Numbered from the stretch's first letter, positions 10,364-63,166 are shown. The stretch: 64,000 nt of DNA from Candidatus Saccharimonadota bacterium (GCA_017459705.1 JAFUCJ010000005.1:7436-71435), one strand, 5' to 3'. Program-made: numbers and translations. The notes: generated from the sequence alone by a model not told the origin.

Positions 10364-10575
10364 GTGGGGCTGCAATTTAATAGCTAGAGTGGCAAGAAGA
10401 AAGGAGGTTTGGGATGCTTGAAATAAACCTACTCTTTGGTTTGCTCAAGATAAAAATTACTTTCGCACGCAAGCGAAAGTAATAAAATAAACCTAATTTA
10501 ATTCTACCACCCATGAGCCAAAATTACAAGACCCTTTTCGGGTATCTTGTCACCCATTAGGGTCAGCAGCCCCAC
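10364..10575 (+). ncRNA. Candidate structured transcript enclosing a small ORF (class unknown)
   Basis: GTGGGGCTGC (10364-10373) is the exact reverse complement of GCAGCCCCAC (10566-10575). A second stem pairs GTGGCAAG with CTTGTCAC, and there are internal hairpins (CTTTCGC/GCGAAAG, CTTGA..AAACC/GGTTT..TCAAG). A weak promoter-like TTGATT-17-TAAGGT lies just upstream. Confidence 0.3.
10414..10482 (+). CDS. Candidate 22-aa hydrophobic/basic peptide (MLEINLLFGLLKIKITFARKRK)
   Basis: Perfect SD AAGGAGG (10401-10407) lies 6 nt before the ATG. The ORF sits inside the folded region above. It is too short for the supplied ORF track. Confidence 0.3.
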   Translation: MLEINLLFGLLKIKITFARKRK

Positions 10576-10582
10576 CCAGTAG

Positions 10583-16731: not shown

Positions 16732-16863
16732 CTTTCGTGCGATAAAACTATTCGTCCACACGGTTAGACGTATTTTTGTCAATATACGCTTAACCGTAGT
16801 ATTGTAGCGCAATATTCCAGCCGGAGTGAGATAATTCAGAACTTAACAAACGTAGCTTAGTAA

Positions 16864-18255
16864 TTATATGCCCACCCAGCCCTTCACTAACCACACTAAT
16901 AGCATTACTGCTAGATAAATTAAACAATACAATAGCATTTCACCAAAATACTGCTTATATGTCCTACCGAATAATTTCGTGTACACAAATTTAGGATAGC
17001 TATACAACCATAAAGCCAAACTGCTTACAAAAGTACCGATGAAAACGCCAGGAAGGCCGATCCACTGCACCAATAATACCGAAACCACAATGTTCAGTAG
17101 AGACTCTACTACTGGCACAAATCTATCCTCATGATAGATTCCAGCTGCCTCTTTGAATACCGCAAAACTCTCTCGCATCATTCTTTGAAAATGTACCATC
17201 AAAAGCGTAATTAATGTAAAACCAGACAACACATATTCACTGCCATACCAAAGTTTCACAAATAGATCAGCAAACAGTATAATGCCGGCAGAAGATATTA
17301 AGACCACGGCAAAATTTACGTTTCTTACCTTGCTAAAAACTTTAAAGTTCTTATCAGTATTTTTGTCTACGAGCATATTTCCCACCGTAGGCGTCAAAGC
17401 CTTAATAGTTTGCGTAAATACAGTCTCGACCGCCGAAAAGATCATATGATAGTTTGAATACAAGCCAACCGTAGATACGTTAATAAAAGCTGAGATAATA
17501 ATGTTATCGGTGCTAAAAATAACAAACGACGAGACCTTATGTATAAATATTGCTCGCATTTTTTTGAAGATATCTTTTTCAATCAGCTTATCGAGCCTCT
17601 TTATATCCTTATCTCGCAAGATTGGATGTCTCGTCTCGGCAATCTTATATAAACAGAAATTTTTTGCAAGCTGCGAAATAATTCCAATTACCAAATAGAT
17701 ATAATAATTATTAGTAAGTAACAGTAAAAGAATTTGGACTAGAACAGTTATTACATTGGTAACAGTTTGGATTCTAGTAATAATATGCCCCTGCTCCGTA
17801 GCGTATAGAATACTTTGCCGATATGACATCACATACGAAGCAATCGTACTCGCCAAGATCAAATTATATGCAATATACATGTTCACGCCAGGTACCGGTT
17901 CGCGCACAATAAAATGTAAGAACGGTAATAACATTACGCCAATACCAGCCGTAATCAGGGCAATTATATAATAAGCTTTCCTATAGAACCTTAATAGTGA
18001 CTTAATTACGTCAATTTTATTAGTTTTAATTGGCTCATATAGATTAAAAATGATAGCACTACTAATTCCTAATTCCACAATACTCAGCGCAGAAATAATA
18101 TTAGTAAGTACGCCATTAAGGCCTAGATATTCCACACCGAGACTATCAATGAATACTTTTTGGAGCACGAACTTCGTCAAAATGCTTGTCACGTTTCCGA
18201 TAAACGCACTTACTGAATTTTTTGCCGGAGCAGTTTTTCTGAACTTCTTGAACAT
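16864..18255 (-). CDS. Polysaccharide flippase (Wzx, MOP superfamily)
   Basis: 463 aa with ~12-14 TM segments. The sequence style is typical of oligosaccharide flippases, and the gene lies within the glycosyltransferase operon. Confidence 0.8.
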   Translation of the reverse strand: MFKKFRKTAPAKNSVSAFIGNVTSILTKFVLQKVFIDSLGVEYLGLNGVLTNIISALSIVELGISSAIIFNLYEPIKTNKIDVIKSLLRFYRKAYYIIALITAGIGVMLLPFLHFIVREPVPGVNMYIAYNLILASTIASYVMSYRQSILYATEQGHIITRIQTVTNVITVLVQILLLLLTNNYYIYLVIGIISQLAKNFCLYKIAETRHPILRDKDIKRLDKLIEKDIFKKMRAIFIHKVSSFVIFSTDNIIISAFINVSTVGLYSNYHMIFSAVETVFTQTIKALTPTVGNMLVDKNTDKNFKVFSKVRNVNFAVVLISSAGIILFADLFVKLWYGSEYVLSGFTLITLLMVHFQRMMRESFAVFKEAAGIYHEDRFVPVVESLLNIVVSVLLVQWIGLPGVFIGTFVSSLALWLYSYPKFVYTKLFGRTYKQYFGEMLLYCLIYLAVMLLVWLVKGWVGI

Positions 18256-18256
18256 G

Positions 18257-19291
18257 CTATTCCCCCCTCTTTATTATTTTGTGTAAAAATCGATATCGAC
18301 AGAAATTCTTCCAAACTACATTGCTATCCTTTTTTCCTATAGCTTTTACTGGTAGCCCGTTCTTTAATTTCTCCAAAACACCCATCTTTGCTACATAACA
18401 ATTTAATTTCTTTTCATCATCCTCCGATAAGCCTAATTGAGCAATGCAATCTTTAAAATCCGCTTCAAAATCTTCCTTTTTGTAGTCATCAATCAACGCC
18501 AAACGCTTCATCACCTCCCAGACCGCCTTCAACTGTTCATAAATCGCTATCTGCTTTGTTTCGTTATCAGAAACATTCTCGCTAACAAACCTCAACATTT
18601 CACATGTTACAAAAAGCCTATCTTTTATGTTTTGGGTAACACGCCATCGCTCTCTACTACGCGTTAAAGATTTGTTATTCATTCTATAATAATAAAACGA
18701 ATCATCAATCGCCAACATTTTGTCTAGGTCTTTGCAGGCTTCAACATTAATTAATAAATCTTCACCCAAACTCAAATCGTAATTAAACGATGGATTACCA
18801 TCCAATAATTCTCTTTTGTATATCTTTCCCCACAAACTATTTAGCTTATATCCAGTTACTAGTAGTGAGATAATTTCATCGTGTTCAATGATATTGTTGT
18901 CTTCAACGTTGGCAATTGGCATGACTATTCCACCGTCAGGATAATATTCTGCATTGAACCTAATGACGTCAACATCATATTTCTCCATTTTTTCTACAAG
19001 CGTCTTAATGGCACCGGATTTCAAAAAGTCGTCAGCATCAACAAACATTATGTAGTCGCCATTAGATTTTTGAAGTCCTAACTTTCTGGCTGCGTTTACG
19101 CCTAGGTGCTTCACGCTATGCACTTTTACGCAATCGGCATTCTTGGCAATATCAACAGATTTATCCGTCGAGCCATCATCCACAACGATAACCTCCTTCT
19201 CGGGGTAGTCTTGAGAAAGAACTGATTCTATACATCGTCCTATGTATTCTTCGCCATTGTAATTCGGAATTATTATGCTAACCTTCTTCAT
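18257..19291 (-). CDS. Glycosyltransferase family 2
   Basis: N-terminus VSIIIPNYNGEEYIGRCIESVLSQDY...IVVDDGSTD, with the DxD motif VDADD. Confidence 0.9.
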   Translation of the reverse strand: MKKVSIIIPNYNGEEYIGRCIESVLSQDYPEKEVIVVDDGSTDKSVDIAKNADCVKVHSVKHLGVNAARKLGLQKSNGDYIMFVDADDFLKSGAIKTLVEKMEKYDVDVIRFNAEYYPDGGIVMPIANVEDNNIIEHDEIISLLVTGYKLNSLWGKIYKRELLDGNPSFNYDLSLGEDLLINVEACKDLDKMLAIDDSFYYYRMNNKSLTRSRERWRVTQNIKDRLFVTCEMLRFVSENVSDNETKQIAIYEQLKAVWEVMKRLALIDDYKKEDFEADFKDCIAQLGLSEDDEKKLNCYVAKMGVLEKLKNGLPVKAIGKKDSNVVWKNFCRYRFLHKIIKRGE

Positions 19292-20585
19292 TGCTTACCC
19301 CCAGTTGCTGCCATTTTTCTTTCTCTTTGCTTTCAATATCATACGCAAGCTCTACAACGAAGATCAAAGGAAGCAATACGTAATATGCAGCGCCTTTGTA
19401 TTCAAACATCAGAAAAACAGTAAAAGCTTGAATCATTAGTACTTTACTTATTCGTCTAAGCCCCATAATTTCATACACTGTTAGCCCATAAGACAATATA
19501 AAACCTATCAACCCCCAAAATAGAATATTTCTCAAAAATCCAACGTCGGTATTCATGTAGTATAATCCATCATTTGTATACCGTCCATCGCCGTACATGA
19601 CCGTGTCTTCCGTAATATCAACCTGCCACATCTTTTGTAACTTATTAAAAGAACTGTCCCCCACATCACCAGTCGTTATTAAATTCGTAAACGGCGAACT
19701 CATCCACTCATACCAATCGCTCATTTCTGGAACTGTCTTTAATATGGCGCCACCTAAAGCCAGCAATATGACTAATGTAACCGTTGCAAATACTATATGT
19801 TTTATCCTATTTCTATTCCAATGTATAAAAGCGGCCGAACACGTGACTAAGGTTGCTACTAGGCCAACTCTACCATAAAACATATTCCCCAAAAAGCATA
19901 TCGTAAAAGCGGGCACGAACCATTTTGCACTTATTGCCGGCGAGCGTGTCCCGTATCTTAGATACATCAAAAACATAGCACTGAAAGTGCAACACAATGT
20001 TTCATGAAAACCCGCAAATCCCTGCCACCCAATACGAAACATATAACGGCTGGCATCCAAAGCACTCAAACTATCGAAAAAAGTTCCCTTGCTTGATATA
20101 GTAAACCACACGTCTTGCCATCCGGGCACAATAACTAAGAGAATCGTGCTTATCACGTATATCACGTGAGTTAAAGCAAAATAGAGCATAAAGTAATTCA
20201 TAACGTGCTCTCCTCCGTGTCTTTTAATCACCAAGCACAGTAATGCTACGTATGTTATGCCGCGCTTAAAGTAAAAAGCCAATGGCGTAAAATACGAAAA
20301 ATCCATCGTTTCATATAGTTGCGGGATCACAATAGACATTGCGATTAATAGCAACATAGCAATTACAGACATCCATTGCCTTGGTTTAAATTTTGTTAAA
20401 ATCTTTATATTCAAAATAATATAAAATAACGGAATCCCTATAGTTATTATATCCATTATTACGCCAGGTATTTTTAAGCTCGGAGTATATATAAAGAAAC
20501 AAAAAGCAATCAATGTTGCAAAACTTATTTTTGAAATCGATGGGTTATTAGAAGAGGCTATTATTTTCTGGAACATTTTTTTCAT
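19278..20585 (-). CDS. O-antigen/EPS polymerase-like membrane protein (Wzy-like)
   Basis: 435 aa, >10 TM segments with a large loop. It sits between the GT and flippase genes and overlaps both neighbours. Confidence 0.65.
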   Translation of the reverse strand: MKKMFQKIIASSNNPSISKISFATLIAFCFFIYTPSLKIPGVIMDIITIGIPLFYIILNIKILTKFKPRQWMSVIAMLLLIAMSIVIPQLYETMDFSYFTPLAFYFKRGITYVALLCLVIKRHGGEHVMNYFMLYFALTHVIYVISTILLVIVPGWQDVWFTISSKGTFFDSLSALDASRYMFRIGWQGFAGFHETLCCTFSAMFLMYLRYGTRSPAISAKWFVPAFTICFLGNMFYGRVGLVATLVTCSAAFIHWNRNRIKHIVFATVTLVILLALGGAILKTVPEMSDWYEWMSSPFTNLITTGDVGDSSFNKLQKMWQVDITEDTVMYGDGRYTNDGLYYMNTDVGFLRNILFWGLIGFILSYGLTVYEIMGLRRISKVLMIQAFTVFLMFEYKGAAYYVLLPLIFVVELAYDIESKEKEKWQQLGVSNEEG

Positions 20586-22873
20586 TTACCACCCCTCTCG
20601 TAGATCTTTTCCAACCTTTCGACTATTCGGTTTATAGAATAATCTTGTATTCTTAATGCTGGGACGACTCTTGACTTTTTAGCCTTATAAATATCATCTC
20701 GCCACTTTTTTGAATCTTCTGTTATATCTTCAAAAACAAAGTTCCGATTTATCTTAGTATTTGGCGAAATTGTCGAACTTGCGACAACTGGCAATCCATT
20801 TGCTTGAGCCTCGATCAAAGCCATGCTTAACCCTTCATACAACGAAGGAAACACAAATATGTCAAACATATTATATAAATAACAGACATCATTTCTATTA
20901 CCTAGGAATAAGACTCTTTCCGCAACACCTAATTCTCTCGCCACCTTTTTTAAATGCCCATTAAGATCCCCATCGCCAACGATAACCATCTTGTATTTAC
21001 TACTATCTAGTTCTTTAAGTATCCTCAATAAATGTTCTTGATTCTTTTCTTTCGAAAGTCGGCCAACGTGCCCTATTATTATGTCGTCATCAGAATATCC
21101 AAACTTCTTTCTATACTTCAATCTAATTTCCTCATCAAACAAATATTGATCAATCTCCACACCATTATATATTACTTCAAAATTATATCCCCTAAACAAG
21201 TTTTCTCCGGCTTCTTTTTCGCAAGCAATCAAATTCGTAGCATTTCTTTGCATCATGTTCGCCAAAAACTTATGATACATTTTTCTTCCAAATCTATCCG
21301 GGCAAGTCGTATGAGAGTGCGAAATTCGCACCCTGGCGGCATTTTTATTTGCTGCTTTCATCACTAAGGCATTTTCAAAAGCGACATTACCATGTACTAT
21401 ATCCGGCTTCTCCATCTTCATTATCTTGTTTAAATCCATATACCGTTTTATTGGGTTTCTCGTAGTCGGAATACGCAAGATCCTACACCCAAGTTTGATT
21501 ATCTCATCCTCATAATCGAACTTAAAATCCTTAAATGTAAGAAACACTATTTCATATTTCTGTTTGTTAGCAAGTATTCTAACTACATTCATTAAAAAGG
21601 TCTCTATGCCACCATAGTTCATCTTATTAGATACATACATTATTTTTTTCTTTTTTTGTGTTTCCGGAATGTGGTTGTTATTATTCGCAATTGCATTGTA
21701 GAGTCTTTCACAATTCCTAGCATCATGAAGGGTAAAAAAAATCTTCGCGCGCATACCATAGTCAACAGTTTTAGTAGCATTTATTAACTTTTTGATCGAT
21801 CGCAATATATCATCCATATTGTCAACAACTGGCCCAAAACCATCTTTTTTATAATCAAAGTATCCCTCTTGATGCTGCCGCGCACGATACTCCTTTAAAT
21901 CAAATTGGTAATAGATCACTGGTTTATTCAGAAATGCAAAATCAAACGCCACACTAGAATAATCTGTAACCATTAAATTACATTTGCTAAAGAACCTTTG
22001 AATATTATCGTCTGGCGATAGTATTTTGATATTCCTACTCGGTGAATTGAAAAACTTCAAGAACGAGCGCATATTTATATGAGGATAAAAATAAACTCTT
22101 ATATTATTTTCTTCAATATACTTTATAAAATCTTGATTTTTCAAAAACCCAGACCAACTCTTATAATAATCTGTACTTAAAAAATTTCTATTTTTAAACA
22201 TCTTGTTTTTATCTCCACCCAACCAATTTCTCCAAGTCGGCATAATAAGTATCGACTTTTGTTTTTGCTTCCTGCTAGCATCTTTTAAACTATCCCACCT
22301 AGGGAATCCGGTAAGTAGTAAACTATCCTTTTTATAGCCAAATTTTCCCAAAATATAATCATATTCCCGCTTTGCACCGCAAACAAAATATTTGAAACGA
22401 GTCTGATTATAGTAAATCCATTTTGAGTCATCCTTTGTAATTCCATGCTGCAGGAAGACGCGGTCCTTGTATAATCCGAGCTTCACATGTAAGATATACC
22501 AAAAAATCGGGGCAGGATTTCCAGATTTTTGACTGCTAATATTTAAGTTTGCAGACATATAAAATAGCCAGTGCTTCAAACCGCCCCATTTTATCACATT
22601 CCCTAATTTAGCCACCTTGTCATAGCCGGCAGAATCAAACGTCATCGCATAAAAACAATAATCCGACGGATGTTTTTCCCTCACATATTTATAGAAATAA
22701 TATCCATTATCACGCGCTTCTCCTTCTTCAGCAATTAGCCATAGATTGCGTTTTCTAAGTTTATTAACAACCCGGAATGCAGAAGATGGTACTAATAGCA
22801 ACAGAAAAACAAACGGCGCCAGCAAATCTCTCATTTTAAACTGTTTAATCGCATTAATAATCCGCCCCATCAC
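20582..22873 (-). CDS. Fusion: CDP-glycerol glycerophosphotransferase (TagB/TagF family) + GT4 glycosyltransferase
   Basis: The N-terminal half has ILIMPTWRNW and VTDYSSVAFDFAFLNKPVIYY (TagF family). The C-terminal half starts IMYVSNKMNYGGIETF and has FVFPSLYEGLSMALIEAQANGLPVV (GT4). Confidence 0.85.
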   Translation of the reverse strand: MMGRIINAIKQFKMRDLLAPFVFLLLLVPSSAFRVVNKLRKRNLWLIAEEGEARDNGYYFYKYVREKHPSDYCFYAMTFDSAGYDKVAKLGNVIKWGGLKHWLFYMSANLNISSQKSGNPAPIFWYILHVKLGLYKDRVFLQHGITKDDSKWIYYNQTRFKYFVCGAKREYDYILGKFGYKKDSLLLTGFPRWDSLKDASRKQKQKSILIMPTWRNWLGGDKNKMFKNRNFLSTDYYKSWSGFLKNQDFIKYIEENNIRVYFYPHINMRSFLKFFNSPSRNIKILSPDDNIQRFFSKCNLMVTDYSSVAFDFAFLNKPVIYYQFDLKEYRARQHQEGYFDYKKDGFGPVVDNMDDILRSIKKLINATKTVDYGMRAKIFFTLHDARNCERLYNAIANNNNHIPETQKKKKIMYVSNKMNYGGIETFLMNVVRILANKQKYEIVFLTFKDFKFDYEDEIIKLGCRILRIPTTRNPIKRYMDLNKIMKMEKPDIVHGNVAFENALVMKAANKNAARVRISHSHTTCPDRFGRKMYHKFLANMMQRNATNLIACEKEAGENLFRGYNFEVIYNGVEIDQYLFDEEIRLKYRKKFGYSDDDIIIGHVGRLSKEKNQEHLLRILKELDSSKYKMVIVGDGDLNGHLKKVARELGVAERVLFLGNRNDVCYLYNMFDIFVFPSLYEGLSMALIEAQANGLPVVASSTISPNTKINRNFVFEDITEDSKKWRDDIYKAKKSRVVPALRIQDYSINRIVERLEKIYERGGK

Positions 22874-23655
22874 ACCCTCCTCCTCACAGCGTTCACTGCA
22901 TATCCTGCAAAATTCACCGCACTAGCAAGCGCGTTAAGGCTTTCTTGTTTACGATACAATCTCCAAATGCGCAAAATCGCCACCACCTTATTTGCCGACA
23001 AAGTCCCATTGCTACGTCTATAGATCGCAAGCGGTTCATCAAGTCCATACGCACACTCGATTTTCTTCAATATCTTCCACCAAGTTGCCGTATCCTCACT
23101 TGCTATATTTGGCATTTCTATATCAACTTTACTTAGCTTTTTCATATCAAACATTACTGCAATAGTTGATATCGTCGTATTCCTTAGCGCCTGCTTGTAC
23201 GTAATCGTCGCCGGCACATGTACGACCTTCCCATTCGGTCGACCTTCCGCATCCGCAAACTCATACCCAGTAAACGAAAACTCGCAATCCTTCTCCTGCA
23301 TGAACTTGACCTGTCGCTCCAGCTTCTCTGGCAACCATAAATCATCCGCATCAAGAAATGCCAAATAATCACCCCGCGCCTCTTTCGTGCCGGTATTTCT
23401 GGCAATTGCGGCACCCTGATTTTTGTTCAAGCAAACTAATTTTACCTGCTCAGAAGCATGCTTACTGATAACGCCCACCGTATCATCAGCAGAACAGTCG
23501 TCAACAATAATCAGCTCCCAGTTATGATAGGTCTGGCCTTGTACCGAGCCTATCGTCTGCGCAATATATTTTGCAGAATTATGCGTTGGTATCACAATGC
23601 TCACTAATGGCGATCGTTGCTCCTGCGACTTCTTTTTCATCTCTTCTTCCAACAA
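22870..23655 (-). CDS. Glycosyltransferase family 2
   Basis: VSIVIPTHNSAKYIAQTIGSVQGQTYHNWELIIVDDCSADDT, with DxD motif LDADD. Confidence 0.9.
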   Translation of the reverse strand: MLEEEMKKKSQEQRSPLVSIVIPTHNSAKYIAQTIGSVQGQTYHNWELIIVDDCSADDTVGVISKHASEQVKLVCLNKNQGAAIARNTGTKEARGDYLAFLDADDLWLPEKLERQVKFMQEKDCEFSFTGYEFADAEGRPNGKVVHVPATITYKQALRNTTISTIAVMFDMKKLSKVDIEMPNIASEDTATWWKILKKIECAYGLDEPLAIYRRSNGTLSANKVVAILRIWRLYRKQESLNALASAVNFAGYAVNAVRRRV

Positions 23656-30553: not shown

Positions 30554-30689
30554 AATTTGCTTTGTGGTTGCTTCAAAAACATAAACGGAATTGGGAATTA
30601 ACAGAGGTAATTTGCTTTGTGGTTGCTTCAAAAACATAAACGGAATTGGGAATTAACAGAGGTAATTTGCTTTGTGGTTGCTTCAAAAC
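30554..30689 (+). repeat. 55-bp tandem repeat, 2.5 copies
   Basis: The unit AATTTGCTTTGTGGTTGCTTCAAAAACATAAACGGAATTGGGAATTAACAGAGGT occurs at 30554-30608 and 30609-30663, with a partial copy at 30664-30689. Each unit contains TTGCTTCAAA, the reverse complement of the upstream TTTGAAGCAA motif. Confidence 0.9.
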
Positions 30690-30759
30690 TACAAAGTATA
30701 GAAAACAATTTGATGGTACTTAAAACAACGATCTATGGAGAAAAACGCCGCACCAAAAT

Positions 30760-34315: not shown

Positions 34316-37246
34316 ATGAAATTTGCATCGAGCTACGAACCGAGTCAGTTTGAACCAGATATTTACGCCGCCTGGGAGACGAGCGGTGCCTTCAAACCCA
34401 CCACACCCACAGTTCCCATTGATAACAATGACGACGGCATCGACGATCGATTTGAGACTGATGTGATACTAGCCGATTCGAGCGCATTTGCGACAACGGG
34501 AGCAAGCGACGAAGCGAGCCCCGTAACGACGGGCGCGAGCGAGGAGGCGCGAGAATCGGCTAGTATCACATCCAGGGACACCTATTCGATCGTTATGCCA
34601 CCACCCAATGCCAACGGCAATCTCCATATCGGCCACGGCCTTACTGTCGCCCTAGAAGATTCCCTTACTCGTTTCTATCGCTTGAATGGTAAATCCTCTT
34701 GGTACATTCCCGGCGCCGACCATGCCGGCTTTGAAACTTGGGTCGTCTACGAACGCACCCTAGAAAAAGACGGTCATACCCGTTTTGAATTCGACCGCGA
34801 CACTCTCTATGCGCGCGTCTGGGATTTCGTTGCCATGCAGCGTGGCAACATGGAGTTGCAACTCCGTGCTCTCGGCGCTTCTTGCTCCTGGGGTGACCTC
34901 ACCTTTACCCTGGACGAAAACGTCATCGATCGCGTTTACACCACTTTCGAAAAAATGTGGAACGACGGCCTTATCTATCGCGGCGAAAAACTCGTTAATT
35001 TCTGCCCCAAGCACCAAACCGCCTTCGCCGACATCGAAGTCGAGCATAAAGACGAAAAAGGCACCCTCTGGGAGATTGAGTATCCACTGATGAAAAATGA
35101 CGATGCGGACATTTTGCGAGCATTTGCAACAACGGAAGCAAACAACGAAGCTAGCCCCGTAACGACGGGTGTGAGCGAGGAGGCGAGCGAAATGCCTGTA
35201 TCGTCATGTATTATCGTAAGCACCACTCGCCCCGAAACCCTTTTCGGTGACATGGCTATCGCCGTCAACCCAGCCGATGACCGCTACAAACCTCTGATTG
35301 GTAAGCATGTCCACCTACCTCTCACCGACAGGACGATTCCTATTATCGCCGACGAACACGCCGACCCCGAGTATGGCACCGGCGCCGTCAAGATTACCCC
35401 TGCCCACGATTTCGATGATTTTGAAGTCGGCACCAGGCACGATTTAGATCGCCTCCAAGTCATAAGTGAGGACGGCCATATGATCAACGTTCCTGATAAA
35501 TACATAAGCCTCACCCCCACCGAATGTCGCAAACAAGTTCTAAAAGACCTCGAATCCGCAGGTCTGCTCCGCGGCGAACAAAAAATCACTCACAGCGTCG
35601 CTCATTGCTACAAGTGCGGCACCGTTCTCGAGCCAACCCTGAAAGAACAGTGGTTTGTCGACGTTAAGCGCCTGGCGAGTGATGCTATTAGGCACCTAGA
35701 ACAGGGCGAAATCACTTTCTACCCCGAAAACAAACAACGTGTCCTTATCAATTATCTCGAAAACTTAAAAGATTGGAACATTTCTCGTCAAATCCCTTGG
35801 GGTATTGCGATTCCTATGTTCAGAAAGGTTACAGAGGAAGCCACCGACGAGCCCGAATGGATTTTTGACCGCCGCACCAATCTCAAAACCATCGAGAAAT
35901 CCGGCGTTACCTACGTCCGCGACGAAGACACCTTTGATACTTGGTTCTCCTCTTCCCATTGGCCAATCGTCTGCACCGACTGGTCTGAGGACAATCCCAC
36001 TCCTTACTACCCACTCAATGTCATGGAAACCGGCGCCGACATCCTTTTTGCTTGGGTCGCCCGGATGATTATGATGGGGCTTTACGTTACCGGCGAAGTT
36101 CCATTCAAGGAAGTCTATCTCCATGGCCTTGTCCTCGACGCCCACGGCCAGAAAATGAGCAAATCCAAAGGTAACGTCATCAATCCGATGGACATGGTGG
36201 CAAGATATGGCTCAGATGCTTTCCGCCTAGGTATTCTCCGCGGTCGCTCGGCTGGCATGAACCAAGCATTTAGCGAAAACTCCGTTGTCTCTGGCCGCAA
36301 CCTCTGTAACAAACTCTGGAACATCTCTCGTCTCATTCAATCTGTGGTTGACGAAGACGAGGAAACAGAGCCACGAGGCGCATTTGCGACAACGGGAGCA
36401 AACGACGAAGCAAGCCCCGTAACGACGGGCGCGAGCGAGGAGGCGACGAGGGGCTCCGTTTCCTCATCTTATACGACCAACAACCAGGGCGAAGACTGGA
36501 TTTGCCGCGAGATTAACCAGTGTCTAGCAGACGTCGCGTCCGGCATGCACTCCTACCGCTTCTCTGAGGCCGTCGAGACCTTATACCAGACCATCTGGGA
36601 CAAATACGCCGATTGGTTCCTCGAATCCCAAAAAATCTACCGTAACGTCCCGCTTCTCAAAACCACGTTGGAGCACCTTCTGATTGCTCTCCATCCCTTT
36701 GCTCCCTTTGTCACCGAGGCTATCTGGCAAAACCTCAGTTGGACTTCCGGTATGATAATTAACGCCAAATGGCCCGGAGAGCTCATATACGACCCGATAA
36801 GCGCAACCGAATTCGAAAGCCTTATCTCAGTCGTCTCCGAAGTCAGGACCACCTTGCAGGCCCTACCAGGCACCAATAACGCCAAAAAATACGCACTACT
36901 ATTCGATAACGATAGTCTTGTTGAGGATAACCTGCTCCTTATCAAGGCTCTTACTAAGGTCCCCGCTGTCACCGCTTTAAACGGCGCCCCACGCGGCCTC
37001 CGCCTTGCCCTAGCCAACCACGAGCTTTACCTCGACGTCCCCGAGAAGGTCGTCAAGGACTACAAGGACGCCTTGACCGACAAAATCCTAGCCGTTGGTC
37101 GCGAGCTGGACGGTCTGAATGCCCGTATGCTAAATCCAAATTATGTCGATAAGGCCCCTGCCCACCTCGTCAAGGAAACCCAGGACGCCATCAAGGAAAA
37201 ATCCGACCTCATCTCCCGCCTGAAAACCCAACTTGAACTCATCTAG
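34316..37246 (+). CDS. valS: Valine--tRNA ligase, with three in-frame repeat insertions
   Basis: Class I motifs PPPNANGNLHIGH and KMSKSKGN, TTRPETLFGDMAIAVNP, and a C-terminal coiled coil. 976 aa. Confidence 0.95.
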   Translation: MKFASSYEPSQFEPDIYAAWETSGAFKPTTPTVPIDNNDDGIDDRFETDVILADSSAFATTGASDEASPVTTGASEEARESASITSRDTYSIVMPPPNANGNLHIGHGLTVALEDSLTRFYRLNGKSSWYIPGADHAGFETWVVYERTLEKDGHTRFEFDRDTLYARVWDFVAMQRGNMELQLRALGASCSWGDLTFTLDENVIDRVYTTFEKMWNDGLIYRGEKLVNFCPKHQTAFADIEVEHKDEKGTLWEIEYPLMKNDDADILRAFATTEANNEASPVTTGVSEEASEMPVSSCIIVSTTRPETLFGDMAIAVNPADDRYKPLIGKHVHLPLTDRTIPIIADEHADPEYGTGAVKITPAHDFDDFEVGTRHDLDRLQVISEDGHMINVPDKYISLTPTECRKQVLKDLESAGLLRGEQKITHSVAHCYKCGTVLEPTLKEQWFVDVKRLASDAIRHLEQGEITFYPENKQRVLINYLENLKDWNISRQIPWGIAIPMFRKVTEEATDEPEWIFDRRTNLKTIEKSGVTYVRDEDTFDTWFSSSHWPIVCTDWSEDNPTPYYPLNVMETGADILFAWVARMIMMGLYVTGEVPFKEVYLHGLVLDAHGQKMSKSKGNVINPMDMVARYGSDAFRLGILRGRSAGMNQAFSENSVVSGRNLCNKLWNISRLIQSVVDEDEETEPRGAFATTGANDEASPVTTGASEEATRGSVSSSYTTNNQGEDWICREINQCLADVASGMHSYRFSEAVETLYQTIWDKYADWFLESQKIYRNVPLLKTTLEHLLIALHPFAPFVTEAIWQNLSWTSGMIINAKWPGELIYDPISATEFESLISVVSEVRTTLQALPGTNNAKKYALLFDNDSLVEDNLLLIKALTKVPAVTALNGAPRGLRLALANHELYLDVPEKVVKDYKDALTDKILAVGRELDGLNARMLNPNYVDKAPAHLVKETQDAIKEKSDLISRLKTQLELI
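34461..34571 (+). mobile_element. Family-A in-frame hairpin element, copy 1 (111 nt)
   Basis: Arm ATGTGATACTAGCCGATTC...GAATCGGCTAGTATCACAT is perfectly complementary over 19 nt. The 66-nt core (34484-34549) encodes AFATTGASDEASPVTTGASEEA. Confidence 0.75.
35097..35207 (+). mobile_element. Family-A in-frame hairpin element, copy 2 (111 nt)
   Basis: Arms ATGACGATGCGGACATTT / AAATGCCTGTATCGTCAT are imperfectly complementary. The core (35120-35185) encodes AFATTEANNEASPVTTGVSEEA. Confidence 0.7.
36354..36470 (+). mobile_element. Family-A in-frame hairpin element, copy 3 (117 nt)
   Basis: Arms AAGACGAGGAAACAGAGCC / GGCTCCGTTTCCTCATCTT. The core (36380-36445) encodes AFATTGANDEASPVTTGASEEA. Confidence 0.7.
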
Positions 37247-37692: not shown

Positions 37693-37889
37693 TGAACTAA
37701 CAATCGCCCACCTCACACAGCGATTGGGAGATCCCGCAAGGATCTGTTTGATGAACCGCCAGCAGACAACGCTGTTGGCAACCGAAATCAAGTCGACCCG
37801 GACAGCAAAACGCTTCACGGAAAATATGGCTATGTACTAAAAAACATAAGCAGTCAAATTTTTGCATGTCGGGCGGGGCAGGAAAACAG

Positions 37890-38969
37890 ATGAAAATACC
37901 AATTACGCAGACGAAAAAATGGCAAAAATTACAGCAGGATTTAGGCAATAAAACTTTTTTTGAGAAAAAATCAGACTTCGAGTATTTAGCCATCGAGAAG
38001 CACACCCCAGTAGGGAATTACCTTTTTCTTCCTTATGGACCAGTGGCGAAAAGTGACCAAGGATTTCTAGATGCGATTAATTCGCTGATTGATTTAGCGA
38101 GGAATCATCGCTGCATTTTTATCCGCCTCGAACCGCAAGACGCCGCTTATCGCGCCCTCCTTCCTATGAACAGCAAAAAAGTCAAAGATGTCGAACCGGC
38201 AGAGACCTGGGTACTAGATTTGCCAGATATTTCCACCGCGGACCCGCTGGATGATCAATCCATAAAAGCCCTCCTCCCGTCACGCCTACTTCGCTATTAC
38301 AAGAACATGGCAAAGCAGGGAATCACCATCGAAAAATCCCACGACCCAGCCGATATTCACTACCTTGTCGAGCTCCAATCTGCCCTCGCCGCCGAGAAAG
38401 GCATCACGACTTTCACCGCGGACTACTTAAAAACCGAGCTCGAGCAAGACTTCGCAACCCTCTACCTATTGTTGCAGCATATGTCGCCCGCAATGCTTGC
38501 ATCGACGGGTGACGCCGCTTGGGGGACCCCCACGCCAGCGCGCGTGGGGGAAAATGCGGCGACAGGACCCGTCGAGTGTAGCGACGACAGGACCCGTCAG
38601 GATGCTCCCTCGGCGGCAGGACCCGTCGAGACTGACGTTGATCATGTCCTTGCCGCCGGCCTCGTTTTTGACGACGCCACCACCCGTTACAATCTTCAAG
38701 GCGCCCAATCCGAAACCGGCAGGAAACTGCACGCCACCGGCATCCTTACCATCGAGCTCATCCTCGACGCCGTACAGAACGGTCAAAAAACCTTCGATTT
38801 CTGGGGTATTGCTCCCGAGGGGGCGCCAGCTACGCACCCCTGGGCTGGCTTCACCGCCTTTAAGAAAACTTTCGCTGGCCGCGAGGTCAAATACGCCGGC
38901 ACTTACGATTTACCCACCGACCCTTTGAGATATCGCCTTTATCAGTTCCTTCGCAGATTCCGCCATTAG
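37890..38969 (+). CDS. FemAB family peptidoglycan aminoacyltransferase (FemX-like), with a GC-rich in-frame insertion
   Basis: Start set to MKIPITQTKKWQKLQQ...YLFLPYGP (typical FemX-like N-terminus). The C-terminus FDFWGIAP...FKKTFAG is family-like. Confidence 0.8.
   Translation: MKIPITQTKKWQKLQQDLGNKTFFEKKSDFEYLAIEKHTPVGNYLFLPYGPVAKSDQGFLDAINSLIDLARNHRCIFIRLEPQDAAYRALLPMNSKKVKDVEPAETWVLDLPDISTADPLDDQSIKALLPSRLLRYYKNMAKQGITIEKSHDPADIHYLVELQSALAAEKGITTFTADYLKTELEQDFATLYLLLQHMSPAMLASTGDAAWGTPTPARVGENAATGPVECSDDRTRQDAPSAAGPVETDVDHVLAAGLVFDDATTRYNLQGAQSETGRKLHATGILTIELILDAVQNGQKTFDFWGIAPEGAPATHPWAGFTAFKKTFAGREVKYAGTYDLPTDPLRYRLYQFLRRFRH
38503..38631 (+). mobile_element. Family-B in-frame GC-rich hairpin element (one full unit plus two extra right-arm copies)
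   Basis: TCGACGGGTGACGCCGC...GGGGGACCCCC...GCGGCGACAGGACCCGTCG (38503-38575), followed by GACGACAGGACCCGTCA and GGCGGCAGGACCCGTCG. Confidence 0.65.
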
Positions 38970-56604: not shown

Positions 56605-59600
56605 ATGAAATACAGAGCCGGAGAGCGCCTTAGGGCCATAGAGTACGAGAAGTCACTCACTGAGTGGTGGAAAAAGAACAAAACTTTTGAGAAATCTATC
56701 GAGAATCGTCCGATTGATAAATCTTACGTCTTCTATGATGGCCCCCCGTTCATTACCGGTATGCCGCACCACGGCACACTTCTCAGCTCTATTGTAAAAG
56801 ACGCCGTCCCACGTTACTGGACCATGCAAGGCTGCCGCGTTGAGCGTCGTTGGGGCTGGGATTGCCACGGTCTCCCCGCCGAGAACTTCGTCGAGAAGCA
56901 GCTCGGCATTACTGACCGTCGCGACATTGGCACCAAATGGTCCCTCGAAGATTACATCATCAAGGCTCGCGAATCCATGGTCGCGAACTCCGAACTCTGG
57001 CGCGCCACCATCGACCGCGTCGGCCGTTGGGTGGATTTCGACAACTGCTACCGCACCATGAACAAGGATTTTATGGAGTCCGTCTGGTGGGCCTTCAAGA
57101 AATTATACGAAGCAGGGAAGATCTACGAGGGTCGCAAAGTCCTGATGTACGACACGAAATTTGCCACCCCGGTCAGCAAAGCCGAAGTCACTATGGACAA
57201 CGATGCCTACCAAACCGTCACCGACCCATCCGCCTACGTCAAATTCAAACGCCAGGATGCCGACGAGTATTTCTTGGCCTGGACCACTACCCCCTGGACT
57301 CTCATGGCCAACCGCGCTTTGGCTGTGAGTCCCGACATGGACTACGTCAAAGTCAAAGTTGGCGACGAGATCTACATTGTGGCAAAATCCCGCCTCGAAG
57401 CAGTTTTTGGCGACGCGGAGTATACCTTATTATCCGGGCGGGTGACGGCTGCGGAGGGGGACCCCCGCCGAGCCTGCGAGGTGGGGGAGGACAGCAGCCG
57501 GCAGGACCCGCCCTATATATTAAAGGGTAGCGACCTCGCCGGCCTCAAATACAAATCTATCGACGGCACTATTTGCCAGGTTTTCACCGCTGATTTTGTA
57601 GGCAATGAAGAGGGTACCGGCATCGTCCATATCGCCCCCGCCTACGGCGAAGACGACTACGATCTGTATCTGAAACATGCCGCAACGGACGACAAAACCA
57701 TGTCCGGGCAGGTGACGGCTGCGGAGGGGGAGGGCGTCACTCGGCAGGACCCGCCCCGTATTTCGTTTGTCGACACTCTCGACGAGAACGGCTATTATCT
57801 ACCAGAGTACGCCGCCAAGCTCCATGCCCTCGGCGTCCGCGACACCGACGAACACGGCATCCAGATTTGGGCCGCCAACAAGTTTATCGCGAAATGCCTT
57901 GAAGAACAGAGAATCATTTACAAAATCGAATACATCCAGCACGAATATCCATTTAATCCACGTTCCAAGGAACGCATTATGTACCGCGCTTTCCCAAGCT
58001 GGTTCTTTGACATAGAGGGGCAAAAACCTCTCATGCTAGCCGAGAACGAAAACATCAACTGGTTCCCAGCCTACTTGAAGCACGGCCGCTTCGCGAAGAA
58101 CATCGAAGCCGCCCCTGATTGGAACCTCTCCCGCGACCGTTTCTGGGCTACCGCCATGCCGGTCTGGAAAGGCGAAAAAACCGGCGCTATCAAAGTATTT
58201 GGCTCCTACGCAGAGCTTAAAGAATACTCCGGCAAAGAGCTAGATGACTACCACCGCCCATGGGTAGACGAGATAGAATTCGACGCTTATGTTGAGAATG
58301 GAAAGGTTATCTCAAAAAATGCCTTATCTGCAACTTTTGAGACCGTGTCCCGAAATCCTCACGAGGATTTCGAAGTGAGCGAGCCCCGTGACGACGGGCG
58401 CGAGCGAACGGGGTCGAAAAAGTTACAGGAAGGCATTTCCGAGTTAGACCATTTCACTCGTATCGAAAAAGTCCTCGACTGTTGGTTCGAGTCCGGCTCC
58501 ATGCCTTTCGCTCAGCTTCATTACCCATTTGAAAACAAGGACAAATTCGAGCGAAATTACCCCGCCGACTTCATCGTCGAATACGTCGGCCAAGTCCGCG
58601 CTTGGTTCTATTATGTTCATACGGTCAACACAGCCCTCGCCGAAATCGGCGCTTTTGGTGAAAAAGCAAAGCGCGGCCACAAGAACGCCTACAAAAACGT
58701 CATTACTACTGGTACCCTCGCAGGGAACGACGGCCGCAAAATGAGCAAATCTCTTGGCAACTACACCGACCCGAATGTCCTGATGGACACCTACTCGGCC
58801 GACGCCCTTCGCTTCCTCCTCCTCAGCAGCCCAGTCCTCTCTGGCGAAGATTTCGCCCTGCTCGACAAGGATGTCTCTGATGTCAACCGCAAGCTCGCTA
58901 TGCTCTGGAATGTTTACGACTTCTTCGTGACTTACGCCGAGATTGAGGGCTGGGATTCTGAGAATTCATGGCGTCCAGCTACCAAAGGTTTAGATTCACT
59001 CAAAAACCCGCTCGATGTCTGGATTATCTCGCGCTTGCATCAGACCAAGGCCAAAATCATTAACGGCATGTCCGAATACAATATCCCCAAAGCGCTAGAA
59101 GACGTCCTGCCGTTTATAGATGATCTCAGCAACTGGTTTGTTCGCCGCTCGCGCCGCCGCTTCAGCAAAAACGACGATCAAGAAGACAAAAACGAGGCTT
59201 TCTGGACTCTTTATACCGTTCTTGTAAAAACTGCTCAAGTTCTCGCTCCGTTTACCCCATTTCTTTCGGAGGAACTTTACCAAAAAATGACCGGCTCTAG
59301 CGAGTCAGTCCACCTTCTAGATTATCCTCAGGCAACCGAAGTAGATAGCGAGGTTCTGGAGAACATGACTCGCACTCGCACCATCATTACCGATGCACTC
59401 GCTCTCCGTATGCACAAGTCCGACACCGAGGCCCAGATTAAAGTCCGTCAACCCCTAAGTAGGCTCACCTACCTAGGCGACAAACTCGACGATTTCTACG
59501 AGCGGATCATTGCCGACGAAGTCAACGTGAAACAGGTCGAAAACGGCGATTCGCTCACACTCGACAAAACTATCACCCCCGAACTAGCCAAAGAGGGCTA

Positions 59601-59826
59601 CGCTCGCGATCTTGTTCGCGCAATTCAATCTGCTCGCAAGAATGCCAAACTTATGATGGACGACCGCATTAAGCTGTCCCTCTCGGTTGCTCTCCCCGAA
59701 GGCTACGAAGATTACGTCCTCACCGAATCCCAGGCCGACTCGTTCGAGCTTGGCGCCAACTACGCCCACGACGAAATCGCCAAAGTAAACGGCGAAAACC
59801 TCACTATCTCACTGGAAAAATCGTAA
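56605..59826 (+). CDS. ileS: Isoleucine--tRNA ligase, with three in-frame GC-rich insertions
   Basis: Class I motifs PPFITGMPHHGT and KMSKSLGN. 1073 aa. TGATATAAT (hexamer 56593-98) lies 6 nt before the ATG, with no SD. Confidence 0.95.
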   Translation: MKYRAGERLRAIEYEKSLTEWWKKNKTFEKSIENRPIDKSYVFYDGPPFITGMPHHGTLLSSIVKDAVPRYWTMQGCRVERRWGWDCHGLPAENFVEKQLGITDRRDIGTKWSLEDYIIKARESMVANSELWRATIDRVGRWVDFDNCYRTMNKDFMESVWWAFKKLYEAGKIYEGRKVLMYDTKFATPVSKAEVTMDNDAYQTVTDPSAYVKFKRQDADEYFLAWTTTPWTLMANRALAVSPDMDYVKVKVGDEIYIVAKSRLEAVFGDAEYTLLSGRVTAAEGDPRRACEVGEDSSRQDPPYILKGSDLAGLKYKSIDGTICQVFTADFVGNEEGTGIVHIAPAYGEDDYDLYLKHAATDDKTMSGQVTAAEGEGVTRQDPPRISFVDTLDENGYYLPEYAAKLHALGVRDTDEHGIQIWAANKFIAKCLEEQRIIYKIEYIQHEYPFNPRSKERIMYRAFPSWFFDIEGQKPLMLAENENINWFPAYLKHGRFAKNIEAAPDWNLSRDRFWATAMPVWKGEKTGAIKVFGSYAELKEYSGKELDDYHRPWVDEIEFDAYVENGKVISKNALSATFETVSRNPHEDFEVSEPRDDGRERTGSKKLQEGISELDHFTRIEKVLDCWFESGSMPFAQLHYPFENKDKFERNYPADFIVEYVGQVRAWFYYVHTVNTALAEIGAFGEKAKRGHKNAYKNVITTGTLAGNDGRKMSKSLGNYTDPNVLMDTYSADALRFLLLSSPVLSGEDFALLDKDVSDVNRKLAMLWNVYDFFVTYAEIEGWDSENSWRPATKGLDSLKNPLDVWIISRLHQTKAKIINGMSEYNIPKALEDVLPFIDDLSNWFVRRSRRRFSKNDDQEDKNEAFWTLYTVLVKTAQVLAPFTPFLSEELYQKMTGSSESVHLLDYPQATEVDSEVLENMTRTRTIITDALALRMHKSDTEAQIKVRQPLSRLTYLGDKLDDFYERIIADEVNVKQVENGDSLTLDKTITPELAKEGYARDLVRAIQSARKNAKLMMDDRIKLSLSVALPEGYEDYVLTESQADSFELGANYAHDEIAKVNGENLTISLEKS
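57433..57513 (+). mobile_element. Family-B in-frame hairpin element, long form (81 nt)
   Basis: TCCGGGCGGGTGACGGCTGC...GGGGGACCCCC...GCAGCCGGCAGGACCCGCCC with nested stems GGGCGGGT/ACCCGCCC and CGGCTGC/GCAGCCG. Encodes SGRVTAAEGDPRRACEVGEDSSRQDPP. Confidence 0.7.
57703..57756 (+). mobile_element. Family-B in-frame element, short form (54 nt)
   Basis: TCCGGGCAGGTGACGGCTGCGGAGGGGGAGGGCGTCACTCGGCAGGACCCGCCC. Encodes SGQVTAAEGEGVTRQDPP. Confidence 0.65.
58351..58419 (+). mobile_element. Family-A-related in-frame element (partial core) read in a different frame
   Basis: 10-bp hairpin CGAAATCCTC-AC-GAGGATTTCG, then CGAAGTGAGCGAGCCCCGTGACGACGGGCGCGAGCGA (about 90% identical to the right half of the valS core), then ACGGGGTCGAAA pairing back. 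Encodes ...VSEPRDDGRERTG. Confidence 0.6.
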
Positions 59827-60741: not shown

Positions 60742-61071
60742 ATGGAAAAACAAATACAGGCTGCGGACTATCAGCAGCTCGCGGAGTTTGTAGACGCACT
60801 GATTGCTCGCAAATTCCCGGAAAACACAGAGAATCACGCGGAGCTTCGTGAGGAGTCTATCGCGAAGTTGAGCGATCACATTAATCAGCGAATTTTTGAA
60901 CAGCTAAGCGAGGAACAAATCGTTCGCCTAGGCGACATCGCTGATGCTCACTCCGACGACCCCGCGGCATTTTCCAAGTTTTTCATGGATGCCGGCATTG
61001 ACCTAAGCCGCACCGTCAAGGATGCCATGATTGAGTTTGGTAACCAATTCCTGGGAGGCGACAATGAATAA
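60742..61071 (+). CDS. Small acidic helical hypothetical protein (109 aa)
   Basis: Promoter TTGACT-17-TAAGAT (60691-60719) and RBS GAAAGG. Overlaps the next gene by 8 nt (60742-61071 vs 61064-63166). Confidence 0.6.
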   Translation: MEKQIQAADYQQLAEFVDALIARKFPENTENHAELREESIAKLSDHINQRIFEQLSEEQIVRLGDIADAHSDDPAAFSKFFMDAGIDLSRTVKDAMIEFGNQFLGGDNE

Positions 61072-63166
61072 TTTTGAACGCCCCCACACCAACAACGATG
61101 ACCTATATACTTCTTACGAGGATGCTGTCGGCTATACCTTCGACGCTCCTGACACGCCCAGTACGCCAAATATAATTGACGAGTTAGACAATACCGCCGA
61201 GCTATCCGAGGAGGCCCGCGCGACGTACGGCGATCGTGGTGAGAAAACTCTCAAATCCACCATCGAGCGCCTGCCGAATAAGATAGGGGAAGCTATCAAT
61301 AAAATCAAAAAATCACCAGCTTTCCAGCGCGCACTCGCACTCGTCGCTACCGGCGTTGCCGTAGTTGCTCTTACTGGTTGCAACGGCGACAAGCAGGAAC
61401 CCGAGGCCTCTACCACTCCTACCGAGACCACTCAGGCCGTCGAACCAGAGGCTCCAAAATATAATCCGGAGAACCGCACCAATAAAACCGAATCCCTTAC
61501 TGGCTCCGAGTTTCTCGACGAACTCATCGACGGCAGTTTTGAGCAGTACTCCAACCCGGGCGGCCATGATCGTAGCTATGCGAAGGATCCATCCTTGGCG
61601 GCCAAGGGCATGCCAGACATCTTTTCCGCCGGGTCCGTTGCTAACGTCGGCGAAACCCTTACCATGATGATTAAAAACGGCCTTATCGCCGACCCATATA
61701 ACCCTACTCCTGAGGAATGGGGCGAAGCGTATAAATATATCGCGTTTAGCGAGAAAGAACCAGCCGCTTTTGTCGCGATTGCTACCGGTTTGCCAGGGTT
61801 CAAGGACCTCTCTTACCGTGACGCCTCGGCCAAGATTGCTGCGATGACCGACGACGAGAAAAAAGATTTCCAGGACATGCTGCATCGCATTTTCGACCGC
61901 GCCACTTTTGAAAAAGGCACCGTCAGCGGCAATGTGAAGAACTATTATATCGTCGACCAGGGCAATGGCGACAAGATTGGTGAATCCAGCGATACTTATC
62001 TCTCTGAGGAAACCAGCACTTTGATTATGCATGTCTCTGACAAGGATCTCTACGACGACGATACCTATATGGTCACCAGCGACGGCCGTGTCGTGCTTGC
62101 CTCGGAATATGCTAATCCGACCGGCACCACTACGACGATAAGCGCACTCTTGCGTTGCTTCAACAACGACGTGGTCGTCACCTACACGAATAACACCACT
62201 GGCGAATCTGACAAAGTCACCATCAACGACAACACTCCTCCATCCGATGAAATCCCGACCAGCAACATCACTGATGATGAGGGTAATTCCGGCGATCATC
62301 AAGACGACAATGGGGGTCAAGGCTATGGCGGTGGTGGCCCTGCCAGTTCAGAAGATAATGGTTACGGTGGTGGCGGCCCTGCTAATCCAGACCCAACCCC
62401 AGACAACGACGGCTATGGTGGCGGTGGCCCCGCCAATCCGGATCCGACCCCAGAGCCGACTCCGGAACCCACCCCTGAGCCAACTCCGGAGCCTACTCCC
62501 ATTCCAACTCCAACCCCAACGCCGACACCCACACCTACGCCTACACCTACCCCCACGCCAGCACCGACCAATCAGCCCAAGAACGAACGAGCCGAAAGAG
62601 AGAACGCTGGTGGCGCAGGCGTTACCGAGCAGCCTATCAACAACAACGTAACACCAGTCACACCTGTTTCGGCGGACCGCGATAACGCCGATAGGACTCG
62701 TCGCGCCGAGGAAGATCGTCGCCAACAGGAAGAAGCCGATGCCCGTCGTCGCGCCGAAGAGCAGGCTGCGGCCGAGCGCAGAGCCGCCGAAGAAGCTGCC
62801 GCCCGTCGTCGTGCCGAGGAACAGGCCGAGGCCGAGCGTCAGGCTGCCGCTCGCCGCGCCGCCGAACAAGCCGCCTCCGAAGCCGAACGCCAACGTCTCG
62901 AAGAGCAAGAACGCCAGCGTCAGGCCGCCGAAGCCGAAGCTCGTCGTCTAGCTGATGAAGCCGCCGCTCGTGCCGAAGCTGAAGCACGTGCTCGCCAAGA
63001 AGAAGCCGCTGCTGCTGAGCGGCAACGCGCTGAGGAGCAGGCCGCCCGCGAACGCGCCCAGGCCGAGGCCGATGCCGCCGCCGCGGCGGCTGCTGCCGAA
63101 GCTGCGAGCCACGTCGATGACACCGCCGGCGAACGTGCCAATATATTTAATAGTGGCGACTTCTAG
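61064..63166 (+). CDS. Probable surface lipoprotein with low-complexity regions (GYGGGGPA repeats, PT/PE repeats, Ala/Glu/Arg-rich coiled coil)
   Basis: Start set to MNNFERPH. Lipobox-like ...VVALTGCNG. (PEPT)n/(PT)n tract and a long AEE(Q/R)AAA region. Confidence 0.7.

Follow-up and report, generated by a model that had tools for sequence, protein, structure and literature searches.

A hairpin-forming repeat within a FemAB-family gene of Saccharibacteria belongs to a widespread and probably mobile DNA family

A GC-rich segment of a FemAB-family gene (fem) in a 64-kb stretch of Candidatus Saccharimonadota DNA (GCA_017459705.1, JAFUCJ010000005.1:7436-71435; hereafter the window, 64,000 nucleotides) is one copy of a widespread hairpin-forming repeat family, here called family B, which is also present in ileS of the same stretch. 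We regard family B as probably a non-coding, dispersed, selfish mobile DNA repeat, similar in behaviour to the Rickettsia palindromic elements (RPEs) and the repetitive extragenic palindromic (REP) sequences. The host open reading frame (ORF; 37866–38969, + strand) encodes a FemAB-family peptidoglycan bridge-forming transferase of 367 residues (Pfam FemAB, E = 1.7 × 10–16), and its closest relatives in the database, from Candidatus Saccharibacteria (TM7), carry the name FemA/FemB family protein. Window positions count the whole stretch, and L and P numbers (such as L001 or P0038) label the other loci and sequences with which it was compared.

A covariance model (CM), R1, was constructed from six copies with the fem copy excluded, and was searched over 1.39 Mb. 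The fem copy was recovered at 51.5 bits (E = 1.4 × 10–7), and at 68.2 bits in a later CM search, while the full and truncated ileS copies scored 86 and 35.6 bits, respectively; E-values across the family matches ranged from 10–7 to 10–17. Since R1 had been built without the fem copy, its resemblance to ileS goes beyond what GC-rich sequence would give by chance, in agreement with an earlier note on this DNA, which had proposed that the fem segment shares the architecture of the ileS element. The exact sequence CAGGACCCG occurs five times in the window, on the + strand only, at 38563, 38588 and 38617 in fem and at 57502 and 57745 in ileS, whereas by a rough estimate ~0.5 occurrences of an exact 9-mer would be expected by chance when both strands of the 64 kb are counted.

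The fem copy is a GC-rich three-helix hairpin with a core of 72 nt (38503–38574), immediately preceded by the T of TCGACGGG at 38502. The family unit is ~72–96 nt long and very GC-rich, with stacked helices P1, P2 and P3 (Table 1), and core lengths across the family vary from 51 to 112 nt, not limited to multiples of three. The length-variable part is P3, which in the fem copy pairs 38527–38535 with 38542–38550. The unpaired conserved positions are the GA after P1, the G-run before P3, GGGGGA(A/G)AA after P3 and (G/A)CAGG before the P1 3′ arm, and are contained in the family motifs GGGT-GA-C, GGAGGGGG, GGGGGA(GG)AAA and GGCAGG-ACCC. Direct reading, folds and the alignment consensus place all three helices in the fem copy, together with the GGGTGAC, G-run, GGGGGA and GGCAGGACCC motifs. 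The RNA fold is very stable (–49.6 to –72.9 kcal/mol), and folding of the fem copy as single-stranded DNA yields one and the same three-helix hairpin from either strand (z = –5.2 and –6.0). The apical hairpin that the earlier note had placed at GGGGGACCCCC is ruled out, as covariation pairs the C-run with the downstream G-run (P3) and leaves the upstream G-run unpaired. A kink-turn at the P1/P2 junction, considered by eye, also appears unlikely, as the conserved GG-A does not seem to fit the tandem G.A consensus.

The helices are supported by covariation in alignments that were fitted to the model, so that the following figures are somewhat inflated: among 19 copies, 93.4% of the stem cells pair and 18 of the 25 pairs have changed on both sides (covariation score 0.508; shuffled control 0.151, slid-partner controls 0.06–0.08), and among 116 distinct copies from ~100 contigs these values are 94.9% and 20 of 25 (score 0.571; shuffled control 0.147, with 0 of 500 reaching the observed score, slid-partner controls ≤0.096). 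Compensatory changes are also visible by eye in the unfitted listing of copies. In the 116-copy alignment the outer three pairs of P1 covary (CG/GC/UA, GC/AU and AU/GC), and changes on both sides are seen across copies at all 7 pairs of P2 and at 9 of the 10 pairs of P3. The compensatory stem changes described in the earlier note are thus borne out for the family. As to the fem and ileS copies themselves, which that note had compared directly, their stems do covary, but the two copies belong to coexisting subfamilies (57% identity), and their differences do not represent drift at one locus.

The earlier note had also read the fem and ileS copies in different frames, and direct reading agrees: the fem frame is ACG GGT GAC GCC (T G D A; STGDA...ATGPVE) and the ileS frame is CGG GTG ACG (R V T; GRVT...RQDPP). 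Each arm is read in one or the other of two frames, and all four combinations occur, with a third sense frame in L008 and P0038; altogether at least five of the six frames are used, in both gene orientations. In-frame copies are found in unrelated genes, encoding FemAB, IleRS, an E2 acyltransferase and a radical-SAM protein. Of the low-GC copies, 44 are in sense orientation and 17 in antisense, and a further 37 lie between genes or at their ends. An independent sample was obtained by a DNA-pattern scan of metagenomes, with matches confirmed by a second covariance model, R2, and its low-GC contigs contributed 24 sense copies in long ORFs, 17 antisense copies, and 33 that are intergenic, at gene ends or unclear. 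(A pattern-scan match on a viral contig, L083, was not confirmed by the CM and was taken as chance.) Every ORF-spanning copy keeps the frame and is free of stop codons, and a heuristic screen of the 38 copies without a spanning ORF located them in spacers or at the ends of genes and gave no clear case of a split gene. The many frames, both orientations and the intergenic copies argue that the encoded peptide is a by-product.

This is consistent with the protein context. In an AlphaFold (AF2) model of the FemAB protein the mean predicted local distance difference test score (pLDDT) is 81, and values below 50 occur only at residues 210–256, which correspond to the insert; the model places the insert between two beta strands and suggests that it forms a disordered loop. 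Of 82 FemAB orthologous loci, 60 contain only a loop of 10–18 residues and no insert.

Close relatives differ in which sites are occupied. In ileS, the window was compared with L204, L206 and L205 at 80–83% nucleotide identity. At site 1 the window carries family B, as do L204 and L206 (78/78 identical, within flanks that are ~80% identical), and L205 is empty. Site 2 holds a B subfamily with P3 deleted in the window, a second B subfamily in L204, the P1 and P2 arms of which are as in the window fem copy, and a third in L206, and is again empty in L205. At site 3 the window and L204 contain a different repeat (family A, see below), L206 contains family B with extra right arms, and L205 is empty. 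Site 4 is empty in the window, L206 and L205 and carries a precise 78-nt insertion in L204, which starts with the first base of P1 and ends with the last of P1′, without target-site duplication. The 'empty' site 1 of L205 (~4840–4880) reads AATCCAACGGGTGAATTG and includes ACGGGTGA, with which the left arm of the element begins; the element in P0128 starts exactly at ACGGGTGA. This could be an excision footprint or a preferred target.

The fem loop shows the same pattern. It is occupied in L006 and empty in the sister L056 (86% nucleotide identity), and the ACAT and AG flanks are missing at the empty site, and are therefore part of the inserted block. In a FemAB tree constructed with the insert removed, the carriers of family B are interspersed with empty sisters, so that about seven or more separate gains in this one loop are implied. 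In close relatives, the same loops of fem and ileS are occupied by families A, B and C and by varying B subfamilies. Copies resemble each other more within a contig than between contigs (mean identity 0.67 vs 0.52), and 14 of 35 within-contig pairs lie above the 95th percentile of between-contig pairs. The element is also more similar between genomes than the genes that carry it: between the window and L001 it is identical at 69 of 72 positions, compared to 61% for the rest of fem and 36% at third codon positions, and over the fem and ileS comparisons it is 96–100% identical where the host genes are 61–83% identical.

The window fem copy is followed by the two additional right arms that the earlier note had described (Table 1). 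They form a 54-nt segment bounded by a 14-nt direct repeat, CAGGACCCGTCGAG (38563–38576 and 38617–38630), and the segment is absent from the relative L002 (93% identical). Similar extra right arms are present at ileS site 3 of L206, and probably also in L001 and L005. All of these may be turnover debris, left by slippage or by repeated insertion at a hot spot.

The orientation of the copies follows strand composition. The first 19 Saccharibacteria copies were all in sense or co-oriented with local genes, and a sense-strand-only rule drawn from them was overturned by the 17 antisense intragenic copies of the metagenome sample. Of 78 low-GC copies, 69 have their top (G-loop) strand on the C-rich strand; counted per contig, orientation and skew agree in 36 and disagree in 7 (p = 9 × 10–6), and the bias holds in each class (sense 37/40, antisense 9/12, intergenic 26/29). 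In the window, the GC skew of the + strand is negative nearly throughout positions 1–64000, over genes of either strand, and the two strands share the coding capacity about equally (10072 vs 8832 codons), with little gene-strand bias. The negative skew over genes of both orientations places the window within one replichore and ties the skew to replication rather than transcription. Because orientation follows skew and not transcription, a DNA-level, fork-associated process is indicated. Together with the intergenic copies and the gain and loss between sisters, this makes the constraint DNA-level and like that of a mobile repeat. The conclusion of the earlier note, that selection acts on nucleic-acid structure rather than on the peptide, is upheld by the covariation, the use of at least five frames and the orthologs without the insert, and is here refined from nucleic-acid structure in general to a DNA-level mobile or selfish repeat, rather than an mRNA structure.

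Family B is not confined to Saccharibacteria, and confirmed copies were also found in contigs of 55–73% GC. Eight contigs share an orthologous pyruvate-dehydrogenase E2 gene with two opposite-orientation copies in frame in its two flexible inter-domain linkers (Table 1); its homologs, at 75–85% identity, are named Solirubrobacterales (Actinomycetota). In mid-GC soil contigs, near-identical copies lie just past gene ends or ahead of gene starts, a placement similar to that of REP sequences. Inverted copy pairs are found in L110, L139 and L147. Those of L110 (10105–10661, in a contig of 72% GC) flank a spacer of ~370 nt that contains a nest of long palindromes and no obvious ORF, so that the block resembles one large composite inverted repeat; the gene between the inverted copies of L139 is Nudix-like, as judged by eye only. 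In low-GC contigs, four copies (L114 10432, L168 5653, L184 8141 and L008 12365) lie in a very short spacer between co-directional genes, with the stop codon of the upstream ORF within the first bases of the element; the P1 arm of the L008 copy starts with TAG, and this copy is plainly intergenic.

The family appears to be previously undescribed. [quoted passage not shown]

Among known systems, family B works like RPE and REP sequences, and meets the defining features of neither. As summarized in PMC10969869, RPEs (Ogata et al. 2000) are dispersed palindromic repeats of a small-genome, host-dependent bacterium, inserted in frame in housekeeping genes, and are described there as encoding a conserved peptide. 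A 2024 review presents RPEs as the outstanding example of in-frame repeat insertion and describes MITEs as able to make in-frame fusions. Family B shares with RPEs the in-frame position in unrelated housekeeping genes (here including aminoacyl-tRNA synthetases), the fold-compatible sites and the lack of a known associated transposase. It differs, in a comparison with RPEs by description, in its length (72–96 nt vs ~100–150), its three helices and conserved loops, its use of at least five frames in both orientations, its skew-tied orientation, its distribution across phyla, its conservation above that of the host genes, and its host organisms (Saccharibacteria, Solirubrobacterales and others). 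REP sequences, together with bacterial interspersed mosaic elements (BIMEs) and REP doublets forming hairpins (REPINs) with their REP-associated tyrosine transposases (RAYTs), are likewise dispersed hairpins without target duplication, and the mid-GC copies of family B, intergenic or after gene ends, as well as the inverted pairs, recall them; a single-stranded-DNA mechanism is plausible for both. However, REPs are single stems of 20–40 nt that carry a 5′ GTAG and by definition lie outside genes, whereas family B is 72–96 nt long, with three helices, G-rich loops and no GTAG, and is often intragenic. No RAYT gene was found near any copy in 2.1 Mb of genome fragments.

Palindrome-associated transposable elements (PATEs) derived from IS200/IS605 resemble family B in their hairpin ends, the lack of classical terminal inverted repeats and of target-site duplication, and a replication-biased orientation (judged here by skew as a proxy). 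PATEs have two different subterminal hairpins and target the 3′ side of a fixed sequence of four or five nucleotides, while family B is a single hairpin, and its conserved 5′ (A)CAT, being missing from the empty site, belongs to the element and is not a fixed target. Classical (DDE) MITEs are also small, non-autonomous and multi-copy, but the insertion at ileS site 4 of L204 lacks a target-site duplication; the P1 arms of family B are 8-bp inverted repeats, and no parent insertion sequence was found near copies. In yeast mitochondria, the mobile GC clusters and byp elements are likewise short hairpins, rich in GC, that have entered the coding regions of a genome richer in AT. They are organellar, and the byp elements are skipped by the ribosome and need not keep the frame, in contrast to the ORF-spanning copies of family B, all of which keep it and are free of stops.

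In our reading, the hairpin is inserted precisely and as a whole, without target duplication, and copies are homogenised or re-copied within genomes. Together with the skew-linked orientation, these traits suggest a replication-linked step, probably on single-stranded DNA at the fork and with trans-acting machinery. In the small, gene-dense genomes of Saccharibacteria, intragenic copies would persist only where they are in frame, stop-free and in a disordered surface loop or linker, and the encoded peptide, rich in Gly, Pro, Ala and Asp, would be a tolerated and presumably neutral by-product.

Several observations weigh against this reading. The insertion at ileS site 4 of L204 is the sole fully clean empty-site comparison, and the identity of the site-1 copies across ~80%-identical genomes could mean purifying selection for a function in place. 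On short contigs, GC skew is only a proxy for replication direction. Clustering of the ORFs within 2 kb of copies gave housekeeping genes only (FtsA, RF1, an ABC transporter, radical-SAM and E2) and no transposase, and tblastn with IS200/IS608 TnpA gave no match in the 2.1 Mb of genome fragments, a weak negative. Conservation of the unpaired motifs extends across phyla, which exceeds what a simply selfish hairpin would require. Finally, G:T pairs exceed A:C pairs (83 vs 34), which hints that one strand folds, although the RNA-type model biases this count.

That last observation would favour a functional mRNA structure, which might slow ribosomes for domain folding, stabilize the transcript or bind a regulator, and the strong covariation, the very stable RNA fold and the uniform sense or co-oriented placement of the first 19 Saccharibacteria copies are in its favour as well. 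We nevertheless consider it improbable, since 17 of the 41 intragenic copies in the metagenome sample are antisense, orientation follows skew in the sense and antisense classes alike, the host genes and positions are unrelated with no recurrent gene context, and Rfam gave no match. A somewhat stronger candidate, though still an unlikely one, is a host-domesticated structural site in DNA, bound by a conserved chromosomal protein and kept for replication, recombination or chromosome organization, as REP and BIME repeats are bound by gyrase and IHF. It would account for the unpaired motifs conserved across phyla, the replication-strand bias, the conservation of the element far above its host genes and the same fold from both strands. 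It is at odds with the presence and absence between sisters, with the exchange of subfamilies at one site, and with the finding of copies in just 14 of the 83 sequences of the R1 search, where many related genomes had none in the sampled regions; we know of no protein that binds the family-B element.

Selection for a peptide module, serving as a functional linker or loop, retains very little credence: copies in genes do always lie in loops or linkers and keep the frame, but the five or more frames give unrelated peptides, which effectively refutes it, and the intergenic copies, the many orthologs without the insert and its predicted disorder agree with that verdict. The poorest account of all, a chance likeness of GC-rich low-complexity coding sequence, can appeal to the short motifs, which are no commoner than chance when one mismatch is allowed, and is already refuted by the CM E-values, the covariation controls and a near-identical copy in a 61%-identical ortholog.

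A mobile, selfish repeat thus remains our preferred reading of family B. The near-identical copies in strongly diverged genes and the cross-phylum motifs are more than plain junk DNA would explain, and fit either a recent horizontal spread, with conserved copies as its masters, or a function, for instance as a protein-binding DNA site. We also offer, tentatively and as a possibility that we think falls short of likely, a broader proposal: that family B is a new class of hairpin, moving as single-stranded DNA or functionally constrained, shared by Saccharibacteria, Actinomycetota (Solirubrobacterales) and mid-GC soil bacteria, and with its loops recognised by a conserved enzyme. In this proposal, the GC-richness of the element in 45%-GC Saccharibacteria would derive from high-GC, possibly host, bacteria, and its 96–100% identity in genes diverged by 20–40% would reflect ongoing transfer between lineages or a function in place, rather than junk.

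Table 1. Positions of family-B elements and their parts in the window and of paired copies in E2 genes (CM, covariance model)
Feature	Position	Strand	Basis or remark
Complete family-B element in fem, with conserved CAT (5′) and AG (3′) flanks	38500–38576	+	CM; identity to L001 copy; empty sister site
P1 5′ arm, CGACGGGT	38503–38510	+	Pairs with ACCCGTCG at 38567–38574; folds and covariation
P2 5′ arm, CGCCGC	38513–38518	+	Pairs with GCGGCG at 38556–38561
Unpaired conserved G-run, TTGGGGGA (family consensus GGAGGGGG)	38519–38526	+	Alignment consensus; unpaired in folds
P3 hairpin, CCCCCACGC, loop CAGCGC, GCGTGGGGG	38527–38550	+	Fold; covariation
Conserved junction ACAGG (family consensus GGCAGG) and P1 3′ arm, ACCCGTCG	38562–38574	+	Near-invariant columns GGCAGGACCCG
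Second, solo right arm (GCGACGA CAGGACCCGTCA)	38581–38599	+	Exact CAGGACCCG at 38588; missing in L002
Third, solo right arm (CGGCGG CAGGACCCGTCG AG)	38611–38630 (arm to 38628)	+	Exact CAGGACCCG at 38617
Family-B copy, ileS site 1, other subfamily, RVT/RQDP frame	57436–57513	+	CM, 83–86 bits across searches
Family-B copy, ileS site 2, P3 deleted	57706–57756	+	CM, 35.6–38.9 bits across searches
Solirubrobacterales E2 copy pairs, ~165–200 nt apart	L147 2016–2366; L107 2647–3024; L148 2280–2642; L176 690–1052; L203 7013–7399; L196 4732–5034		

Other repeats occupy the same sites. Family A, a second in-frame GC-rich repeat (peptide AFATTGASDEASPVTTGASEEA), is present three times in valS (34477–34555, 35113–35191 and 36373–36451) and in part in ileS (58378–58420), and other genomes have family-A-like peptides at ileS site 3 and in the fem loop. 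The repeat includes a hairpin, CCCGT-AACG-ACGGG, and its ACGGG/CCCGT motif recurs in family B. The first valS copy is enclosed by a 26-nt inverted repeat (34460–34485/34547–34572; 92% complementary), AT-richer and host-like, which yields an outer stem of 22 bp (folded as DNA, –35.6 kcal/mol, z = –5.9) and is lacking from the other two valS copies; it could be an inverted target duplication or a longer variant of the element. A third in-frame repeat, family C (peptide GFRSAAARGLAPVTRGDGLTGRDPRE), lies in the same FemAB loop in L012, L013, L014 and L061 (~10550–10800), and where it is arranged in tandem together with family A, as in some of these loci, the loop reaches up to 92 residues. In addition, the valS ortholog of L070 (5249–8182) contains an in-frame insert of ~50 residues twice, in near-identical form (...ISKH(V/L)RG(S/A)DSHF(D/N)NGHGRESDTEISGRVRLNRCENDDREPSTLRN...), and the IleRS of P0130 has a related segment.

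The large ORFs near fem include valS (34316–37246) and ileS (56605–59826). Elsewhere in the window, a low-GC island (16800–23000; GC 0.35–0.37, compared to ~0.47 elsewhere) contains four or five large – strand ORFs and may have been horizontally acquired. An intergenic region at 30554–30718 contains a 55-nt unit in tandem, as two identical copies and a third at 62%, and degenerate coding repeats of 60 and 37 nt at 62687–63064, within an ORF of 711 residues (61031–63163; no Pfam match), appear to encode a stretch rich in Ala, Glu and Arg.

If our reading is correct, family B would join the Rickettsia elements as the second clear case of selfish palindromic DNA colonising essential genes in frame, in this case within the Candidate Phyla Radiation, with its tiny genomes and little room between genes. 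Such insertions account for much of the length variation of Saccharibacteria housekeeping proteins (IleRS 953–1280 residues, FemAB 302–419 residues), flag a source of annotation and alignment artefacts, and mark insertion-tolerant loops in enzymes. They also raise the questions of what agent mobilises the element and of whether DNA flows between epibionts and high-GC bacteria, and the covariance model is a ready tool for a census of the family.

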